Shown here in pieces: positions 20,793 to 52,945 of a stretch of DNA of 52,945 nucleotides. This stretch comes from Candidatus Wildermuthbacteria bacterium RIFCSPHIGHO2_01_FULL_48_27b (GTDB taxonomy: Bacteria; Patescibacteriota; Minisyncoccia; Minisyncoccales; UBA10102): NCBI GenBank assembly GCA_001824915.1, contig MHTS01000024.1, positions 1 through 52,945 of the forward strand, written 5' to 3'. Position 1 is the first letter of the stretch; every line of letters begins with the position of its first letter. Position numbers and translations under genes: made by a program. A model generated the notes under the pieces. It worked only from the letters and a program-made list of their open reading frames with translations. It did not search any database and was not told where the DNA came from.

Positions 20793-20821
20793 TTGACAAG
20801 ATTTTCCAGGTGGTATATACT
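20793..20821 (+). promoter_or_regulatory. Near-consensus sigma70 promoter
   Basis: TTGACA-17 nt-TATACT. Confidence 0.55.
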
Positions 20822-20827
20822 AACTTT

Positions 20828-20926
20828 GGTTTAAAAAAACCAAATTCTCGACTTGGAAGATGTGTGTGCTCCTGTTTGTTGTACGCGCTATTTCGATGCT
20901 TGAAAACTCTGAATAGCTTTTTTTTT
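20828..20926 (+). ncRNA. Candidate short transcript or attenuator downstream of the 20793 promoter
   Basis: Hairpin TTTGGTTT/AAACCAAA at the predicted 5' end. An 18-codon ORF (20860-20916, MCVLLFVVRAISMLENSE*) has its stop inside a weak stem GCTATT(T)C/GAATAGC, which is followed by nine T residues (20918-20926). Confidence 0.35.
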
Positions 20927-21105
20927 GCACAAAAGTGATTCATACATATCTTTCAAGTCGAGAAGGCTAGCTCTTTAACAGAGTAAATCTTCTTAGGCTT
21001 GAGAAATTTTACATGGCAGAAAAGGAGGTGAGTATTTGCTTGTTAGCTAATCTTGGCTAAACAATTGTTTCTCGGTACCCTATCAAAAAACAACAGGAGA
21101 AATCA

Positions 21106-22599
21106 ATGACATCGGGCAAACAGTTGGTAAGGAATACCACCGTTCTCGGCTCAGTGCTTATGGCGATGGTGCTGGCGTTTGTTGTCCTGATGCCTCAGGT
21201 GGCGCAGGGCGCCAACGGCGATCCGCCCAGCATTTCGCCGTCCTCGGTGGTGGTGGATATTCCGCAGGGCGGCGAGACGGTCATTGAGAAGACCGTCCAA
21301 ACGTCGACAATCCCACCGAAGGTGGACATCTATTTCCTCTCTGATACCACGGGGAGCATGGGGAGAGCCATCGCAGCAGTCCAGGGTGGCGCCGGTGCGG
21401 TGCTTGCTACTATTGATGCTGCGACTCCCGACGCCCGCTACGGCGCCGGTGACTACAAGGACTTTCAGTCGCCCACGCAGCTTGACCCGTACGCCTTCAA
21501 CAATGCCGCGCCCATCCCGGGCGTGGACGACAATGGCGCCGCCGCTTTGGCCGCCATCGGAGGTTGGGCCGCCGCTGGCGGGTTTGATGGTCCTGAAGGC
21601 CAACTGTATGCCTTACACCAGCTTGCCGCTCACGGCGCTGCTGCTTTCCGGCCCAGCGCGACTAAGGTCGTTGTCTGGTTCGGAGACATCAACGGGCATG
21701 ACCCTGTGTGCGCCGCCATTTCTGGCGACCCGCACGCCGTGACCCTAGCAAGTTTGCTCCCCGAGCTCACGACTGCGGGGATCATAGTTAACGCCATCAG
21801 CACTGTCGGCGGTCCCGGATTGGATGGGGTCTTCGCAGGCGGCGACTACGCGGCAGCGTGTGGTCCTGAACCGGCTCCAGCAGGCGGGCAGGGATTGGCC
21901 ATTACAGGCGCCACGGGTGGCACCAGCTTCGTTGGTGTCGCGCCAGCGGCCATTTCCGCCGCGATTCTGGCGGGGCTCTCAAGCCTTCCCGTGACGGTGT
22001 CTATGGCTAGCGATTGTGCTGCCCCGATCAGTACCACGTTCGCGCCTGTTAGCGTCGGGCCGGTACCGTCCGGTTCGGCGGTTAGCTTCCTGGAGACCAT
22101 CTCGGTGGCTCCTGGCGCAGTGCCCGGCGTCTACGAGTGCGACGACTGGGCTCTGATCAACGGCACGCCGATGGTGGACGCTTCAGGTGAGACCATCAAG
22201 GAGCACAAGAAGATAACGGTAACTGACGTGACGCCACCGGCGGCGTCTTGTACCCCAACCACGAATCCTGCCGGGGAAAATGTGCCCACGGCTCCCGGTA
22301 AGGGCGCTCAGGGCCAGAACCAGGACGGGTTCTACGTCTTGAATGCCTCCGACGCGGTTGACTCGTCGCCCGATATCTACCTGGTAGACGACGGCACGGG
22401 TACCGTCTTCGGGCCGTTTGTAAGCGGCACTAAGATTAAGTACGCCGAGGCCAATGGCGCGGTTCCTTCCCAGAAGCCCGGGAGTGGCGTCATCAACTGG
22501 AAGATCAACGGACAGGGCGATGCCCAGGTATACGCCGTTGACGCCTCCGGCAACAAGTCGGCGGTCGTATCCTGTTTGGTGCCACCAGAACCCAAATAG
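21106..22599 (+). CDS. Secreted von Willebrand factor A-like protein (GC-rich, likely acquired)
   Basis: SD AGGAGA. The signal peptide ends ...VAQGA. DIYFLSDTTGSMG is a vWA MIDAS-type DxTxS motif. An Ala/Gly-rich middle region is followed by a C-terminal beta-rich domain. Codons are dominated by G/C at the third position, unlike the backbone. Confidence 0.75.
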   Translation: MTSGKQLVRNTTVLGSVLMAMVLAFVVLMPQVAQGANGDPPSISPSSVVVDIPQGGETVIEKTVQTSTIPPKVDIYFLSDTTGSMGRAIAAVQGGAGAVLATIDAATPDARYGAGDYKDFQSPTQLDPYAFNNAAPIPGVDDNGAAALAAIGGWAAAGGFDGPEGQLYALHQLAAHGAAAFRPSATKVVVWFGDINGHDPVCAAISGDPHAVTLASLLPELTTAGIIVNAISTVGGPGLDGVFAGGDYAAACGPEPAPAGGQGLAITGATGGTSFVGVAPAAISAAILAGLSSLPVTVSMASDCAAPISTTFAPVSVGPVPSGSAVSFLETISVAPGAVPGVYECDDWALINGTPMVDASGETIKEHKKITVTDVTPPAASCTPTTNPAGENVPTAPGKGAQGQNQDGFYVLNASDAVDSSPDIYLVDDGTGTVFGPFVSGTKIKYAEANGAVPSQKPGSGVINWKINGQGDAQVYAVDASGNKSAVVSCLVPPEPK

Positions 22600-22687
22600 G
22601 CAGAACCAGCCAGAAGATTTACTTTTCCTGGTCAGCGTTAGACGCTAGCTAGGAAACAGAGCGAGCTCTTTAGCTCTTTGATCCAAA

Positions 22688-22735
22688 GGGCAGATGAGAT
22701 TCGAGTTTCTCGAGTCAATTCTGCCCCCTTTTTTT
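22688..22735 (+). terminator. Rho-independent terminator after the vWA gene
   Basis: GGGCAG-(27-nt loop with inner hairpin attcgag/ctcgagt)-CTGCCC, then CCTTTTTTT. Confidence 0.65.
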
Positions 22736-42173: not shown

Positions 42174-42202
42174 TTGACAAATTACACAATAATAGGTAAA
42201 AT
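42174..42202 (+). promoter_or_regulatory. Near-consensus sigma70 promoter of the orphan cassette
   Basis: TTGACA-17 nt-TAAAAT. Confidence 0.5.
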
Positions 42203-42243: not shown

Positions 42244-42624
42244 ATGAAGGCAAAATTCTACCAACTCCAGTCCAAACTTGGGCTTGTGAAGTTCCTTGAG
42301 ATGGGTGCTGGAGAACAAGATGCAGAGACTACTACCGGTAAAACTGATGCTCTTCTCGCCGGAGCCTGCTACCCTCCCCTCGATCTTACTAGCATAGGAT
42401 TGGGGAAGGTATACGAGTACATGTTCCGAGGCTATGGGGAAGGCGTCGCGGGCTTACTCCTACGAATTGCCGATGCTCTCAACCAAAAAGAGGTTCGTCG
42501 CCACGAGATCTGGACAGTAGATCAAACAAAGGACCCTCCCCTGCTTATTGGCGTAACTTTCACACTGTCGCCGCACGAGGTGTTATTCATAGTTTTAGAC
42601 GAAATCAATGCTCTTGCTAGTTAA
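42244..42624 (+). CDS. Hypothetical protein (orphan, opposite strand to flanking thrS and dnaE)
   Basis: SD GGAGGA 5 nt before the ATG at 42244; 126 aa; no recognisable domain; followed by the structured element. Confidence 0.5.
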   Translation: MKAKFYQLQSKLGLVKFLEMGAGEQDAETTTGKTDALLAGACYPPLDLTSIGLGKVYEYMFRGYGEGVAGLLLRIADALNQKEVRRHEIWTVDQTKDPPLLIGVTFTLSPHEVLFIVLDEINALAS

Positions 42625-42646: not shown

Positions 42647-42800
42647 GGGCAGGCGACGAGAAGTCCAAACCTTCTTTCGCCTGCCCACTCTTATTGAGTT
42701 CATCAACAAATTGATGGGTTCAACAGGAGTTCCAGTACTTTTAAATATACATCCGCCGCTTCATAGCGGCGAAACGGACATTACTCCAGAAACGCTTAAA
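42647..42800 (+). ncRNA. Structured element, copy A of a 3-copy family
   Basis: Helix 1 GGGCAGGCGA..TCGCCTGCCC (42647-42686). Helix 2 TCATCAA-caaa-TTGATGG (42700-42717). GAGT..CTTTTAAA linker. Hairpin CGCCGC-ttcata-GCGGCG containing the 17-mer CGCTTCATAGCGGCGAA (42757-42773), which is identical to 52907-52923. Confidence 0.45.
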
Positions 42801-43015
42801 ACAATTGATTGAAGGAAGTGGAAACAAGTGGTAGTGTTCGTATCACTGCTATGAAGCAGGGGAGCGCGGCTTCGGTCGCACCTCTGCTGCTTCTATCAAA
42901 GTTCACAAAAGTAAACAAAAGCAACTACTACGAAATATTGCATATGCGGAAATTCGTAGTGCTGTAGTACGCATTATGGTAGTGAGGCAATAAAGCTTTT
43001 ATGGATTTTGATAGA

Positions 43016-43046
43016 AACAAAACCTGACAGTTGCTGTCGGGTTTTG
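43016..43046. terminator. Bidirectional hairpin terminator at the 3' end of dnaE
   Basis: AAAACC(T)GACAG-ttg-CTGTCGGGTTTT, with T-runs on both strands. Confidence 0.6.
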
Positions 43047-48288: not shown

Positions 48289-48732
48289 ATGGCTAGCCGG
48301 CACCTTGCGCGTTCCATAGCAATGCAGTCCTTGTACGAATGGGACTTTTACGGCAAGCAAAAGGAATTGGCAGAAACAGTAGAACGCAATATCAAAGAGT
48401 TTGGTCCGGGGCTGGAAGAAGGAAATAAAGACTTTGTGCGGCGGCTCGCCTTGGGCGTACGTGAAAACCTGCAGTCGCTCAATTCCATTATTGAAAAGGC
48501 GGCGCCCGAATGGCCGCTCGATCAAATAACTCTTGTGGATCGTAATGTATTGCGCCTTGGCCTTTACGAACTTATATACGGCAACAAAGAAGAAGTGCCG
48601 CCCAAGGTGGCGATTAACGAAGCAATCGAACTTGCAAAAAACTTCAGCGGCGAATCATCAGGCAAGTTCGTCAATGGAGTGCTGGGCACCGTATTCCGCG
48701 AATTAGAAGCAACGCAACAACAAAATGGCTGA
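48289..48732 (+). CDS. nusB: Transcription antitermination factor NusB
   Basis: [18 protein letters not shown]..., [24 protein letters not shown].... Confidence 0.9.
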
Positions 48733-49417
48733 ACTTTCTCAACTTGAATCAACATTGAAGCTGCCCTTCAAAAATAAAGACTTGCTACAACAAGCGTTCG
48801 TTCACCGTTCGTATCTCAACGAAAATCGAGACTTCCATCTTCAACACAATGAAAGGCTCGAGTTTCTGGGAGACGCGGTGCTCGAACTGGTTGTTACCGA
48901 ATATCTATACTCAAAGTACCCTGATAAGCCGGAGGGGGAACTTACCGCCTGGCGCGCCGCGCTGGTAAACACCAAAATGCTTTCTTCTATTGGCAGAGAA
49001 CTGAACTTTAGCGATTACTTACTGCTCTCGCACGGGGAGGCGAAAGAAGAAGGCAAGGCAAGAGACTATATTCTGGCAAACACGGTGGAAGCCTTCATTG
49101 GCGCCCTATACCTTGACCAAGGCTTGAAAAACTCCGGAAAATTTATTACAACATATATACTGTCCAAACTTGCGGGAGTGCTGGAGGACGAACTATTTTT
49201 AGACTCCAAATCTCGCTTTCAGGAGTTAGCACAGGAGAAAGCGGCCATTACCCCCACATACACCGTATTAAAGGAATGGGGGCCTGACCACGCCAAGCAT
49301 TTCCACATCGGCGTATATCTGGATAAAGAACTGGTGGCAAACGGAGAGGGCTCTTCCAAACAGGAAGCAGAGCAAAATGCAGCAAAAAATGCCCTCGCAG
49401 AAAAAAACTGGAAATAG
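48725..49417 (+). CDS. rnc: Ribonuclease III
   Basis: [21 protein letters not shown] (RNase III signature) and a C-terminal dsRBD (GPDHAKHF...[16 protein letters not shown]). Confidence 0.9.
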
Positions 49418-49887: not shown

Positions 49888-49917
49888 TTAGACAGCTTTT
49901 TGCTTTTATGGTATAAT
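49888..49917 (+). promoter_or_regulatory. Promoter with extended -10, leaderless spacing
   Basis: TTAGAC-18 nt-(TGg)TATAAT, then 6 nt to the ATG at 49924. Confidence 0.45.
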
Positions 49918-49923
49918 GCATGC

Positions 49924-50130
49924 ATGTACAACTGGTCAACAAACGAAAAGGCGCTGAAAAAAAACAAGGAACATTATGCCATTTGGAGACTGGAACAAAT
50001 GGTGAATTTTGGTTTGCATGGGAAAAAGCTAAAGATAAGCGAGCTACGAAAATATTGGGACAAACTGCAAATTGATCCTGTGCGAAGGCAATTTTTGCAA
50101 CTATTTTTGCATGGAAAACGGAATCCTTAG
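49924..50130 (+). CDS. Small protein upstream of the AbiEii-like gene (candidate antitoxin/partner)
   Basis: 68 aa, MYNWSTNEKALKKNKEHYAIWRLEQMVNFGL.... Overlaps the downstream nucleotidyltransferase gene by 20 nt, a toxin-antitoxin-like layout. The function is inferred from context only. Confidence 0.45.
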   Translation: MYNWSTNEKALKKNKEHYAIWRLEQMVNFGLHGKKLKISELRKYWDKLQIDPVRRQFLQLFLHGKRNP

Positions 50131-50770
50131 CCAAATCCAGCTTGCTTTTCTCGGAGAACTTGGTAAACAAGAATTTATCCGAAAGAACTTCTATTTAACT
50201 GGCGGCACTGCGCTCGCCGCATTTTATTTAGGCCATCGATATTCAGAAGATCTTGATTTTTTTTCCGAGAAAGAGTTCGATATTTTGCAGATTGACGTGC
50301 TTTTAAAAGGTTTTCAAGTAAAATTTGGCATTCTCAATATTGATTTCCAAAACAGCTTTAACCGCAATCTCTTCTTTCTGCACTTGAAAGATGAAATTCT
50401 AAAAATCGAATTCACATATTTCCCCTTTACGCGTATCGAAAAGGGAATACAAGAATGGGGGATAGAGATAGATTCGCTTCTTGATATTGCGGTCAATAAA
50501 CTTTTTTCCGTTTATCAACGCACAAAAGCCCGCGATTATATTGACCTCTATCTTTTGTGCAAAGAAAAGAGCTTTACCATAGGAGAGTTGATGCAAAAAG
50601 CACGGCTGAAGTTTGACTGGCATATCGATGCTCTTCAGCTTGGTACCCAGTTTATGAAAGCGAAAGATGCACAGGATTATCCCCGAATGATTCGGGAAAT
50701 CTCACCCAAAGAGTGGCAGAATTTCTTTGTGGAAGAAGCAAAAAAACTTGGACAGGAGATTATTGAGTAG
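50111..50770 (+). CDS. Nucleotidyltransferase of the AbiEii/AbiGii (DUF1814) toxin family
   Basis: FYLTGGTALAAFYLGHRYSEDLDFF is the characteristic AbiEii N-terminal NTase motif; 219 aa counted from the ATG at 50111. Confidence 0.7.
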   Translation: MENGILSQIQLAFLGELGKQEFIRKNFYLTGGTALAAFYLGHRYSEDLDFFSEKEFDILQIDVLLKGFQVKFGILNIDFQNSFNRNLFFLHLKDEILKIEFTYFPFTRIEKGIQEWGIEIDSLLDIAVNKLFSVYQRTKARDYIDLYLLCKEKSFTIGELMQKARLKFDWHIDALQLGTQFMKAKDAQDYPRMIREISPKEWQNFFVEEAKKLGQEIIE

Positions 50771-50815
50771 CACAAATGGTGTTTGAATGTGTGAAGCCTC
50801 GCTTCACACATGTCT

Positions 50816-51094
50816 TCAAAAACCTCCGATGCCCAGTGAACGGAGAGTGGCCTGAACCGAGAGGTTTTCGGTGTTTTGAAGTTTCACGTTTTCTTCGCCA
50901 AAACGCTCGCGCAGCGGCGTGAGAAATTCGTCTGCCCACGAGGGAGATAGCACCACAACCTCCGCAAAATCCACGACGACAGAATCTGTTCCTTCCGGAA
51001 GCGAATATGCCTGCGCGGCAAGCCAAACCTCGCGCCCCGCAGGCCTTGAAATCAACATTGTGCCGAATTTTTTGAGGAAAATAGTGGTTGTCAT
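50816..51094 (-). CDS. STAS-like DUF4325-type protein
   Basis: ...RPAGREVWLAAQAY...VVVDFAEVVVLSPSWADEFLTPL... resembles the DUF4325 pattern (xLDFxGV..xxxSFxDEF); 92 aa. Confidence 0.55.
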   Translation of the reverse strand: MTTTIFLKKFGTMLISRPAGREVWLAAQAYSLPEGTDSVVVDFAEVVVLSPSWADEFLTPLRERFGEENVKLQNTENLSVQATLRSLGIGGF

Positions 51095-51293: not shown

Positions 51294-51364
51294 TAGAAAG
51301 AGCGAAAATAAGCTCAAATCTCTCAATTCTTGCCTTATTTCACCCCGAAAACGCCCTAAGTGGC

Positions 51365-51393
51365 TTGACATTTTTGGGGAAGTATGCTATACT
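51365..51393 (+). promoter_or_regulatory. Near-consensus sigma70 promoter, divergent from the DUF4325 operon
   Basis: TTGACA-17 nt-TATACT, the same hexamers as at 20793. Confidence 0.55.
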
Positions 51394-52027
51394 GTAGGCA
51401 ACAATAAAATACTGGCTTTGCGGGTGGAAGGAGAGAGCCACCGGCAAATAATAAAGATACATACGATTGCACATATCACAATTACCCAATCAGCTCTCCC
51501 CAAAAGGAGAGTTGATTGTTTAAAGGAGGAGGAACAGAAGATTCTTCCCCCATACCCTTCAGCCCATCATGCAGCGCATGACGAATTGAAGGGTAACGAT
51601 AGCACCCAAAACTTGAGAAAGGAGGAGGCCGTGAATACGTACTTCGTCGTCAATGGTCTCGTCTTCACGAAGCGTGAAGACGCCGTGGCCTACAAGCAAT
51701 CTTGCAAGTAGGTCGCGGGGGATCGGGGCGACGCGGTATATATACATGCGACTCTCTCCGATCCCTTAAGCTCAAGACTATAAGCAAAGCTCGAGGCCGT
51801 GAGTTTGAGGGATCGGATAGAATTAGAAGAGTTCAACAGGGGTTAGTACATAAAAATCAAAAACCGTGCTTTCTCTACTTAATTCGTCTTCAGCGATTTG
51901 GCCGAGGTATTTGGCTGAATCGTTGGAGACGAGAAGTAGGGTGAGATGCGACTCGTCGAAGATCTCTTCTTGAGTGTCGAAGAACGACAAAGAAAACTCA
52001 CGAAGAGTGCCAAGAAAGGCAGAAAAA

Positions 52028-52447
52028 ATGTCTACAGGGGTTTTTTTCCTGGTGCTGTGTCTCCTGACCGCCGTGGGGGTTGGCGGGGTTATCGCCATTG
52101 TCACGTGGGCGGAACGGCACCCCTCGTTCCGCACCGTGTTCGGCTTCAAGCCAAGCACGAGAGGGTCCAGGCTCCGCACTGCGGAGCAGAAGCGGGTTGA
52201 AGGCCAGCTATCGGCACTGGCCATCGATTACGCCGCATGGGATGCGGCCGAGAGGAGGGCCCCGAACTCTCCAAGCGGACAGTTCAAGAGATGGCACGAG
52301 CAGGAGAGGCGGCGCCTCGCGAATGTGAGGCGGGCCCTGGAAGCCGCGAAGGCGCGTTTCTGGCGGGCCCACGGGCTCGCCGCGAAGAAGGAGTTCAGTG
52401 TATGTAATAAATACACTGACTATCTTCAGAACGCAACCCATCGGTAA
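52028..52447 (+). CDS. GC-rich hypothetical protein with N-terminal TM helix and Arg/Ala-rich helical region
   Basis: The ATG at 52028 gives MSTGVFFLVLCLLTAVGVGGVIAIVTW..., then ...RRLANVRRALEAAKARFWRAHGLAAKK. It is followed by a hairpin and by structured element copy 1. Confidence 0.5.
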   Translation: MSTGVFFLVLCLLTAVGVGGVIAIVTWAERHPSFRTVFGFKPSTRGSRLRTAEQKRVEGQLSALAIDYAAWDAAERRAPNSPSGQFKRWHEQERRRLANVRRALEAAKARFWRAHGLAAKKEFSVCNKYTDYLQNATHR

Positions 52448-52480: not shown

Positions 52481-52620
52481 GGCGAGAGAGCAAAGGTTAA
52501 TCCCTTTCTCTCCCGCCCCCATACTTGAGTCCATGAGTAAGTTCGTGGGCTGAAGAGTGGATAGCTCTTTCAAAACCTTCGGGGTGGCGATGAGTCCTTA
52601 GACAAGCTAAAGATTCATTG
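52481..52620 (+). ncRNA. Structured element, copy 1
   Basis: Helix 1 GGCGAGAGAGCAAAGG-ttaat-CCCTTTCTCTCCCGCC (52481-52517). Helix 2 GTCCATGA-gtaagt-TCGTGGGC (52529-52550). About 100 nt align to 52806-52900 with about 8 differences. Confidence 0.45.
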
Positions 52621-52656
52621 CCGCTCCGGAGAAAATCTGGAGTGAAGGAGAAAAAA

Positions 52657-52773
52657 ATGCCCGAATGTTTTGAGAAACAGTGGGGGACGTGTGAGGGGGA
52701 ACTCGTCTATGCAGACGAGTTTCACGCCTTCTTGTGCGAGAAGCACCTGAAGGCGGCGCGCAGGAGGGACTAG
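52657..52773 (+). CDS. 38-aa Cys/His-containing mini-ORF between the two element copies
   Basis: SD GAAGGAG 7 nt upstream of the ATG. MPECFEKQWGTCEGELVYADEFHAFLCEKHLKAARRRD* (C-x7-C ... H-x3-C-x2-H). Confidence 0.35.
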   Translation: MPECFEKQWGTCEGELVYADEFHAFLCEKHLKAARRRD

Positions 52774-52805: not shown

Positions 52806-52945
52806 GGCGGGGGAACAAAGGTTAATCCCTTTCTCTCCCGCCCCATACTTAAGCCCATGAGTAAGTTCGTGGGCTGAAGAGTGGATAGCACTTTCAAAAT
52901 TATAGTCGCTTCATAGCGGCGAAGTGAACATTAGCCAGATACATT
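52806..52945 (+). ncRNA. Structured element, copy 2 (runs off the window end)
   Basis: Helix 1 at 52806-52842. Helix 2 GCCCATGA-gtaagt-TCGTGGGC (52853-52874). Hairpin GTCGC-ttcata-GCGGC containing the 17-mer shared with copy A (52907-52923). Confidence 0.45.

Follow-up and report, generated by a model that had tools for sequence, protein, structure and literature searches.

The window analysed here is a 52,945-nucleotide (nt) contig, MHTS01000024.1 of assembly GCA_001824915.1, from Candidatus Wildermuthbacteria bacterium RIFCSPHIGHO2_01_FULL_48_27b; its DNA is also present in GCA_001002215.1 and GCA_001823345.1. The organism, which comes from aquifer groundwater, belongs to the candidate phyla radiation (CPR) or Patescibacteria, a large, mostly uncultured group with tiny genomes, in which RNA-level regulation and the uptake and expression of foreign genes are almost uncharted. 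Between the minus-strand genes thrS and dnaE the window holds one plus-strand cassette with its own promoter, and its single open reading frame (ORF) is followed by a series of structured elements: two adjacent hairpins (H1 and H2), a single-stranded linker resembling the antitermination signal BoxA, and a long interrupted hairpin that we call alpha. We found this composite module again at the junctions of a gene array downstream of rpsP and at related loci in other genomes, and we propose that it may act as a counterpart of the signals found in rRNA operons.

A solitary cassette between thrS and dnaE

The interval comprises the following features, with copy A denoting the module of this cassette and L numbers denoting the loci retrieved or scanned in this work.

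42174..42202, + strand: promoter of cassette A, sigma-70-type TTGACA-17-TAAAAT (11/12 matches)
42244..42624, + strand: 126-aa orphan ORF with a Shine-Dalgarno sequence (SD); no Pfam, PHROG or PADLOC match
42647..42686, + strand: H1 of copy A, GC-clamped, 22 nt past the stop codon, without a U-tract (-26.3 kcal/mol)
42687..42730, + strand: H2 of copy A, an outer and an inner helix abutting H1, in a BoxB-like position (from the fold)
42734..42745, + strand: BoxA-like single-stranded linker of copy A, AGTACTTTTAAA (9/11 to GYTCTTTAANA)
42753..42771, + strand: small hairpin CGCCGC-ttcata-GCGGCG, a competing local pairing that cannot coexist with alpha (-12.6 kcal/mol)
42759..42856, + strand: alpha of copy A, CUUCAUAGCGGCGAA..GGACAUUA / UAGUGUUC..CUGCUAUGAAG (covariance-model match 42762-42853, 88.6 bits)
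42856..42893, + strand: UUCG-capped hairpin 3' of alpha (from the fold); the stretch is missing in sibling L031
43019..43046, no single strand: bidirectional intrinsic terminator common to the convergent dnaE; kept in L031

An initial annotation of the interval had listed the promoter, SD, ORF, hairpins, linker and UUCG-capped stem, and each lies where it was placed. Its second hairpin, at 42700-42717, is present but forms merely the apical part of H2, and an end of the element at 42830 proved wrong, the long hairpin covering 42759-42856. The pairing of the second helix had been described as kept despite changed sequence; folds and alignments bear this out, with the inner helix of H2 swapped for other complementary sequences in paralogues and orthologues.

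The ORF had been called an orphan, and a protein search found its own cluster alone among 5.8 billion proteins. A 1-nt deletion at 42348 causes a frameshift of this ORF in three of eleven otherwise identical assemblies, and also in run X6; the ORF is possibly dispensable or decaying. Because the ORF is an orphan and frameshifted in these assemblies, because the BoxA-like motif and alpha of copy A are the least canonical among the window copies, and because no ORF follows its alpha, whose 3' arm is slightly degenerate, the evidence suggests that this cassette is a decaying or vestigial outpost of a larger gene-array system.

The initial annotation had suggested checking sibling genomes for absence of the cassette from the thrS-dnaE junction. 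The sibling L031 keeps H1-H2-BoxA-alpha there behind an unrelated 92-aa secreted ORF, and its homology to the window begins exactly at the 5' base of H1 of copy A. The H1-to-alpha block is 91.6% identical between the two, and dnaE of the same pair is 89.6% identical at the DNA level. Read mapping to the window also revealed a related strain with a 493-nt thrS-dnaE spacer.

The same module separates the genes of an array downstream of rpsP

The same order of helices had been noted at 52481 and 52806, which we confirm, as we do the identity of a 17-mer shared with 52907-52923. Both copies are real, but the element does not merely recur twice: the window genome holds at least ten junction modules, at least six further copies lying just past the window end in L007. 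Contigs such as L007 that prolong the window were fetched by exact-protein look-up, and L007 differs from the window by one mismatch across 10,918 common bases. The island that carries these copies lies downstream of rpsP, spans about 8.3 kb with about 12 co-oriented ORFs, and continues beyond the window end. Within the window it comprises the following.

51365..51393, + strand: strong array promoter TTGACA-17-TATACT with TG (L007 9338-9366, 11/12)
51631..51711, + strand: 26-aa first ORF of the array, YFVVNGLVFTKREDAVAYKQ; a homologous peptide was read in L032
51712..51870, + strand: fourth window copy, a divergent H1-H2 with a degenerate A-rich linker (-50.9 kcal/mol)
52028..52447, + strand: 139-aa cassette ORF (GC 0.62)
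52481..52517, + strand: H1 of copy B (from the fold)
52519..52560, + strand: H2 of copy B (from the fold and alignment)
52563..52574, + strand: BoxA-like linker of copy B, AGCTCTTTCAAA (10/11; 7/8 of the NusB-S10 contact core UGCUCUUU)
52584..52624, + strand: beta, which stands in for alpha as the long hairpin 3' of BoxA and precedes an SD and ATG (-22.0 kcal/mol)
52657..52773, + strand: 38-aa cassette ORF, with a gene call in L009, L014, L015 and L016
52806..52842, + strand: H1 of copy C (from the fold)
52843..52884, + strand: H2 of copy C (from the fold and alignment)
52887..52898, + strand: BoxA-like linker of copy C, AGCACTTTCAAA (9/11)
52909..52945, + strand: 5' arm of alpha of copy C, cut at the window end (covariance-model match 52912-52945)

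Almost every ORF of the island is followed by the same series, namely H1, H2, a single-stranded CTTT(N)AAAA and a long hairpin, after which 12-150 nt lead to the SD and start codon of the following ORF; the junctions are 210-940 nt long and multi-part. The copies are not alike in all helices as first described, for copy B (52481-52624) has another long hairpin after its linker. Besides beta, which recurs at L007 14497-14550, a 'mini-alpha' at L007 12672-12726 and other long hairpins take alpha's place, and H2 of the fourth copy is homologous to L017 1480-1525. The 'orphan cassette' of the initial annotation is solitary at thrS-dnaE, but it belongs to a gene-array system at syntenic sites in many Parcubacteria.

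The island ORFs have a GC content of 0.51-0.64 and a GC content at third codon positions (GC3) of 0.57-0.80, against 0.45-0.47 and 0.42-0.59 in host genes, a contrast that marks them as foreign and horizontally acquired; the junctions between them have 42-53% GC. Searches of the island ORFs against Pfam, PHROG and PADLOC gave nothing significant, with weak helix-turn-helix (HTH) matches in a 222-aa ORF, and in those searches the significant matches beside the array were AbiEii and DUF4325 proteins. The array promoter region (window 51364-51525) is 95% identical in L031, above the flanking coding genes. The only plus-strand terminator-like site of the island stands at its far end, right before the KH-trmD genes, and a terminator scan listed no plus-strand terminator between L007 9400 and 17600.

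Alpha is a conserved hairpin

The third hairpin of the initial annotation, CGCCGC-ttcata-GCGGCG, is present but is not a conserved structure: its upstream arm is missing in copies outside Wildermuthbacteria, and it is confined to Wildermuthbacteria copies (L007, L031). Its GCGGCG arm pairs instead with a distal UCGCCGCUAUG about 80 nt downstream, forming the base of the roughly 90-nt hairpin alpha. In full-length minimum free energy (MFE) folds the small hairpin forms in copy A only, and alpha forms in copy C and L031. Wherever CAUAGCGGCGAA-(2-3 nt)-GRACAUUA occurs, UUAGUGUUC-(2-3 nt)-UCGCCGCUAUG lies 40-55 nt further downstream. The two pair to form alpha, an 85-97-nt interrupted hairpin of 11 + 11 (+3) bp with a small internal loop, its stem prolonged by CUU/RAR; beta has 13 + 4 bp.

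RNAalifold placed 22 pairs in alpha from 12 copies, and the covariance model built on them detected 28 distinct sense-strand sequences in 22 non-redundant loci. Across these, 96.1% of cells are paired and six pairs are changed on both sides; with the 3' partners displaced by 1-3 columns, only 29-51% of cells pair. The alignment was fitted to the model, a bias towards the structure, and its sequences are relatives of one another; the shuffle control therefore cannot serve as a probability. These sequences supply the further homologues with compensatory changes that the initial annotation had suggested seeking. G-U pairs occupy 74 of 615 cells (about 12%), with one U-G present in 24 of the 28 copies, and under the covariance model the sense strand of every copy outscores its antisense strand by 40-50 bits. 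Alpha retains 22 invariant columns across genomes whose housekeeping genes are 65-75% identical in DNA. The complete alpha of copy C, at L007 10885-10972, scores 92.1 bits.

Against Rfam 15, in gathering and E-value modes, the window matched three tRNAs alone, with nothing at E<=0.1 in the island; alpha came closest to mir-1278, a family with a gathering score of 61, at 27.6 bits. Alpha is a conserved motif without an Rfam family. Because its sequence conservation exceeds what RNase III usually needs, a specific binding partner beyond RNase III is suggested.

Compared with dinucleotide shuffles, copies A, B and C fold with z scores of -8.0, -7.2 and -6.1 on the plus strand and -6.1, -3.9 and -2.8 on the minus strand. 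For H1-H2, cross-subfamily MAFFT alignments were too poor for a joint covariance model, and we used folds of each copy and alignments within subfamilies instead. The view that structure here outlasts divergence of sequence stands, in that the element is conserved, repeated and folds best on its sense strand.

The linker matches BoxA

The initial annotation had listed this stretch as a linker; it is present, is more than a spacer, forms the most conserved single-stranded block of the module and matches BoxA. Aligned on their motif, the linkers read A-G-Y-(U/A)-C-U-U-U-N-A-N-A-A-A, and we scored them against the gamma-proteobacterial BoxA consensus GYTCTTTAANA (PMC5725501). L019 matches perfectly (GTTCTTTAACA), copy B at 10/11 positions and copies A and C at 9/11. 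With random 45-nt windows from the same loci as background, a match of at least 9/11 lies no more than 45 nt upstream of alpha in 19 of 28 copies, usually 5-16 nt away (background 5.4%), and a match of at least 10/11 in 14 of the 28 (background 1.3%). In the crystal structure of NusB-S10-BoxA, the eight nucleotides (G/U)GCUC(C/U)UU are contacted base-specifically and the next position is not (PMC3177189). The near-invariant G-Y-U-C-U-U-U block of the linkers corresponds to these contacted nucleotides, and the linkers vary at the position that lacks such contacts.

Local folds leave the motif unpaired in every copy, and in longer folds it can pair with the SD. In full-length folds of 52563-52660 and L007 10861-11005, CUCUUUC pairs with the next SD region across the base of beta or alpha. 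Several copies have a G after CUUU (GTTCTTTGAGA, GCTCTTTGAAA), as in the conserved primer GTTCTTTGAAAACTGAAT of the Mollicutes 16S-23S spacer, a sequence that we take to be a BoxA of the Firmicutes-type variant. As a -35 or -10 element the linker was ruled out, there being no -10 at proper spacing, and a search of the junctions for sigma-70 promoters gave just one weak, non-conserved sequence, TAGCCA-16-TAAAAT, which lies within the alpha loop in two copies.

Two genes of the window encode candidate trans factors; they lie two and one genes upstream of rpsP, with nusG nearby (L001).

48289..48732, + strand: nusB, candidate trans partner of the BoxA-like motif (PF01029)
48725..49417, + strand: rnc (RNase III), an enzyme that may process the long hairpins (PF14622, PF00636, PF00035)

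Arrays occupy syntenic sites in related genomes

Sequence collections were scanned with a degenerate 22-nt pattern that represents alpha's 5' arm. A species-level genome collection gave six true matches and one chance coding match; five of the six genomes are labelled Parcubacteria, Paceibacterota or Wildermuthbacteria and one Saccharibacteria, and each carries a single cluster. Metagenomes yielded matches on 28 contigs, which together with the genome and look-up loci form 23 clusters. In all, related copies are present at no fewer than 20 non-redundant CPR loci. Among 2.9 million viral contigs, scanned with two alpha patterns, there was no true match, only 0 and 3 chance matches within a phage structural gene, and the covariance model found no alpha on the phage-like contigs L020, L025, L027 and L028. 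Within the 53-kb window the model detects alpha only at 42762-42853 and 52912-52945.

Most copies have the two adjacent hairpins and the conserved linker upstream, and in 27 of 34 cases an ORF with an SD follows alpha on the same strand. The distance from the end of alpha to the start codon is mostly 12-60 nt, and that to the SD ranges from 12 to more than 150 nt. Two syntenic sites emerged: arrays adjoin thrS/dnaE in the window, L029, L031 and L054, and they lie between rpsP and KH-trmD-tRNA-Tyr/Thr/Trp in L007 and L017. In L033 and L035, compared on the tRNA side, the arrays likewise precede the tRNA-Tyr/Thr/Trp cluster; trmD was found in two of the scanned loci, as was S16. At about 10660-10745 of L054, three tandem 26-nt units, CAGTACCTTCGGTACTTCATCTCATT, stand directly 5' of alpha in place of the BoxA-like linker.

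Junction modules as putative rrn-like nut sites

In rRNA operons a boxB hairpin is followed by boxA and then by boxC, which belongs to the 5' strand of the long helix that leader and trailer form and RNase III processes (PMC10250234). As in rrn and lambda N-utilisation (nut) sites, the junction modules present a hairpin, a single-stranded BoxA-like motif and the 5' strand of a long helix in the same order, and their (A)GYUCUUU block corresponds to the 8-nt NusB-S10 contact core, with 9-11 of the 11 consensus positions matched in most copies. They differ in that rrn signals occur once or twice per rRNA operon, whereas here a module stands at every protein-coding junction; in that the rRNA helix encloses the rRNA, whereas the array helix closes locally with a 40-55-nt loop; and in that position 1 of the array motif is A, some copies (A, C) also having A at contact position 4. 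We predict that NusB-S10 binds the modules.

We propose that rrn-like BoxB-BoxA-helix modules keep RNA polymerase processive, delimit or process the cistrons, and supply homology for cassette exchange, a reading that we prefer to its rivals and for which we find the arguments on the two sides about evenly balanced. A single promoter would drive one long polycistronic transcript of the array, and each junction in it would offer a nut site of the rrn type, with a hairpin in BoxB's place followed by BoxA. NusB-S10 would bind the linker RNA (AGCUCUUUCAAA) and, with NusG and NusA, make polymerase resistant to termination, so that read-through would be secured across structured, poorly adapted foreign genes. 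The long helix after BoxA, in place of boxC and the leader-trailer helix, would serve as an RNase III substrate or as an insulator between cistrons. Once the helix had been cut, H1-H2 would be left at the end of the upstream mRNA as a barrier to 3' exonucleases, and the downstream mRNA would start just before its own SD; at the DNA level the modules would supply homology for the swapping of cassettes. We infer transcription as one unit because of the positions of the single promoter and the single terminator-like site; Nus binding, cleavage and stabilisation are likewise predictions.

Several observations weigh against this proposal. Copies A and C carry A in place of U at NusB contact position 4; exact BoxA matches are not enriched in the window (3 against 1.5), and matches with one mismatch in L007 number 29 against 13.2 +/- 3.8 expected, an excess of about twofold for a motif that is short. 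There are no rRNA genes in the window or the retrieved loci, so the host's rrn BoxA is outside the comparison. The sense-strand folding advantage of H1-H2 is weak in other genomes (18 of 27, p about 0.06), and the sequence conservation of alpha goes beyond the needs of RNase III, as noted above. Metatranscriptome runs of the same studies contained no reads from the region. On their sense strand the island ORFs are rich in G, not in C (C/G 0.56-0.93), and do not look like strong Rho loading sites; a search of the literature on Rho in Patescibacteria was without result.

BoxA is known outside rRNA operons from suhB and a toxin gene (PMC5725501), and PMC7862264, citing Stringer 2020, places it upstream of long CRISPR arrays. 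The array modules are like these cases in that BoxA, outside rRNA operons, would secure the expression of long or foreign transcription units; they differ in that those have a single leader BoxA, whereas here there is one per cassette, with conserved hairpins on both sides.

The early-region RNase III sites of phage T7 and the repetitive extragenic palindromic (REP) sequences and bacterial interspersed mosaic elements (BIME) are intercistronic structures that are cut, block 3' exonucleases, or both, and give each cistron its own ends. The modules share with them the place of structured intercistronic elements in a polycistronic RNA, cleavage being a proposal here, but the primary sequence of alpha, with its invariant columns, is far more conserved, and the module is composite and includes a BoxA-like motif. 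The promoter(early)-stem-loop (PeSL) elements of T4-type phages, reportedly described by Arbiol et al. in 2010 as mobile regulatory cassettes made of a promoter and a terminator-like stem-loop, offer a further parallel: they too are repeated regulatory modules on either side of small novel ORFs, in hyperplastic regions where recombination between repeats shuffles modules. The array junctions, by contrast, showed no conserved promoter, and what they conserve is a BoxA-like motif; they lie on a CPR chromosome, and the viral contigs scanned yielded no copy.

BoxA, intercistronic hairpins and cassette arrays are each known already; their combination as a standard CPR junction module, the alpha motif and the syntenic hypervariable loci appear undescribed, and a literature search on CPR integrons and CPR structured intergenic repeats found nothing relevant. 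If the proposal is right, antitermination by Nus factors and BoxA would extend from rRNA operons and CRISPR leaders to all junctions of cassette arrays, and at least one new conserved RNA motif, alpha, would be added that Rfam lacks. The syntenic hypervariable loci may then encode strain-specific functions, which could concern episymbiosis or phage defence and counter-defence; one cassette pair is common to the array and phage-like contigs. As a practical handle, the covariance model detects such arrays in metagenomes.

Cassette exchange and the comparison with integrons

Several comparisons at the DNA level point to exchange. Copies B and C are 95% identical through H1-H2-CTTTCAAAA and then continue with beta and alpha, respectively. 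The junction behind the 38-aa ORF likewise shares 95% identity with the one behind the 155-aa ORF over a stretch that starts at the stop codon and runs as far as the 3' arm of alpha, beyond which the two diverge. Between rpsP and KH, L007 has about 12 cassettes and L017 few (one called ORF of 182 aa and small uncalled ORFs), and a common 150-nt post-alpha leader precedes unrelated ORFs in the two. An island fragment of L017, holding a pair of 222-aa and 256-aa ORFs, lies at another locus with CTTTGAAAA on either side. Together with the unrelated ORFs that precede the shared thrS-dnaE module in the window and L031, these breakpoints suggest that the repeated modules would be the points where ORFs and modules swap between arrays.

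The initial annotation had left the choice between a functional RNA and a single-stranded-DNA recombination site, and the evidence leans to RNA. The alternative of integron-like sites, in which alpha, the core CTTTNAAAA or both would be an attC analogue recombined as folded single-stranded DNA by a recombinase acting in trans, with RNA effects secondary, we consider unlikely, though the logic of the arrays agrees with it. As in integron arrays and clusters of attC sites lacking integron integrases (CALINs), small co-oriented ORFs of uncharacterised role, mostly promoterless, follow one conserved promoter, and the content varies among relatives, sibling genomes differing in cassettes at the same sites (rpsP|KH-trmD; the 126-aa against the 92-aa ORF at thrS|dnaE). 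Like attC, alpha is imperfectly palindromic, its ends being conserved and its centre variable. Paralogous junctions cease to be homologous at the linker and at alpha's 3' end, the island fragment of L017 is bordered by CTTTGAAAA on both sides, and an AbiEii toxin-antitoxin module adjoins the array, as in chromosomal integrons.

Other properties do not fit a recombination site. No integrase, transposase or recombinase occurs among the 25 commonest of 62 Pfam families in 60 large ORFs of 13 array loci, nor in the scanned window genes, a scan outside which about 33 large window ORFs upstream of 38 kb lie; no intI was found within these scans, with which CALIN-type arrays remain compatible. The ends of alpha, CUUCAUAGCGGCGA and UCGCCGCUAUGRAR, contain no RYYYAAC/GTTRRRY cores of the R''/R' kind. 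The sense strand folds better, and the many G-U pairs would become A-C mismatches on the bottom strand. The junctions are long and multi-part, with homology breaking at four module borders and not at one crossover point, and BoxA accounts for the conserved linker.

On the side of the proposed rrn-like modules, a broader version can be framed: an integrase-independent CPR platform for gene capture and expression at fixed hot spots (thrS|dnaE and rpsP|KH-trmD), with foreign ORFs set between standardised rrn-derived modules (BoxB-like hairpins, BoxA and an RNase III-type helix) that would act both as recombination borders and as inbuilt antitermination and processing signals, allowing whatever gene is captured to be expressed. 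We regard this extension as decidedly doubtful; if it held, it would be a functional integron analogue derived from rRNA-operon signals and a natural counterpart of the insulator parts of synthetic biology.

Selfish repeats, translational control and terminators

Spread of selfish or neutral repeats within the islands, in the manner of REP/BIME, enterobacterial repetitive intergenic consensus (ERIC) or Correia sequences and miniature inverted-repeat transposable elements (MITE), with incidental effects on mRNA, is improbable. Imperfect palindromes of about 90 nt with conserved termini, in multiple intergenic and co-transcribed copies, do recall such elements, and ERIC, REP and Correia elements alter mRNA stability and are cut by RNase III or RNase E. 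These repeats, however, are dispersed, in either orientation and with target-site duplications, a pattern that we did not find in the window and scanned loci: the window copies are confined to arrays (two matches), each scanned genome has one cluster, and the copies are co-oriented with the ORFs and keep a stereotyped place between BoxA and the next SD. The flanks CUU/RAR are not duplications but complementary, and they lengthen the stem. Nor would selfish spread by itself account for the invariant columns that alpha keeps while housekeeping DNA diverges.

Translational control, in which the linker CUCUUUC would pair with the next SD across the base of the long hairpin and hide the ribosome-binding site until cleavage or protein binding, has in our estimate a slim chance of being the principal function. 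The linker does pair with GAAGGAG/AAGGAGG in the full-length MFE folds of copies B and C, BoxA-mediated repression is documented for suhB (PMC5725501), and alpha ends shortly before most start codons. Any CU-rich motif pairs with any SD, however, so that no copy-specific covariation can be shown; the L031 linker is unpaired in the full-length fold, and the alpha-SD distance varies more than tenfold.

Ordinary 3' untranslated terminators beside unrelated 5' untranslated hairpins with no common function are very improbable, for although H1 lies 20-60 nt past the stop codon, as expected of a terminator, the intrinsic-terminator pattern of a GC-rich hairpin plus U-tract is missing from H1 and H2, which are followed by ACUCUU/CCAUAC and the linker, unlike the predicted terminator-like sites (43019-43046 and the island end) with their T-rich tails, and the four-part order and the linker and alpha sequences recur across genomes.

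Further observations at the array loci

The array opens with a conserved mini-ORF of 26-30 aa, YFVVNGLVFTKREDAVAYKQ in the window and YFVVKGMVAFTRQEALGLKQ in L032 (4575-4665). Between rpsP and the array promoter, at 49900-51094, lie a gene for an AbiEii toxin with a 76-aa ORF upstream of it and, in divergent orientation, a DUF4325 gene; the block is missing in L031, where the array promoter region follows about 270 nt or less after rpsP.

At L007 12654-12726 a BoxA-like motif and the 'mini-alpha' fall within the last 20 codons of a 108-aa ORF, and this junction therefore overlaps coding sequence; the 'mini-alpha' block of L007 is also the left border of the island fragment in L017. The longest junction, L007 11438-12375, has 938 nt with 53% GC, two H1-H2-like units, more hairpins and no called ORF, and may hold decayed cassettes or a longer non-coding RNA.

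The gene pair at L007 12755-14338 consists of the 222-aa HTH/sigma-like ORF and a 256-aa Zn-ribbon, all-beta ORF. In the phage-like contigs L020, L025 and L027 a 150-183-aa ORF precedes a 243-266-aa homologue, the pair adjoining genes for DNA polymerase A, SNF2 helicase, RecA, ribonucleotide reductase (RNR) or primase, and the contigs with this pair carry no junction modules. An AlphaFold model of the 256-aa protein (predicted local distance difference test score, pLDDT, 86.5) had no PDB fold match at E<0.001; considered as a recombinase, the protein gave no hint of such a role, the model being confident and without a fold match. ARAGORN called tRNA-like structures in the 222-aa ORF and its homologue (L007 13248-13327, L017 9683-9762); lying in coding sequence that is rich in GC, these calls are probably spurious.

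The low-complexity 3' part of rpsP differs by about 99 nt between L007 (7726-7852) and L008, in assemblies otherwise 99.4-99.99% identical, and GC-rich motifs such as GCCTGCCTCGC..GGCGGGCC recur in this part and at several places in the window (repeat families D2, D4 and D8).

A perfect match to the BoxA consensus, GCTCTTTAACA, lies at 20970-20980 of the window, in a leader of about 280 nt (region 20793-21106) between a TTGACA-17-TATATA promoter and a 497-aa secreted-looking ORF with 63% GC and no Pfam match. That ORF is followed by GCTCTTTAGCTCTTTGATCC and then by a canonical terminator (22664-22735), and BoxA-like motifs may accompany other foreign GC-rich genes of the window genome.

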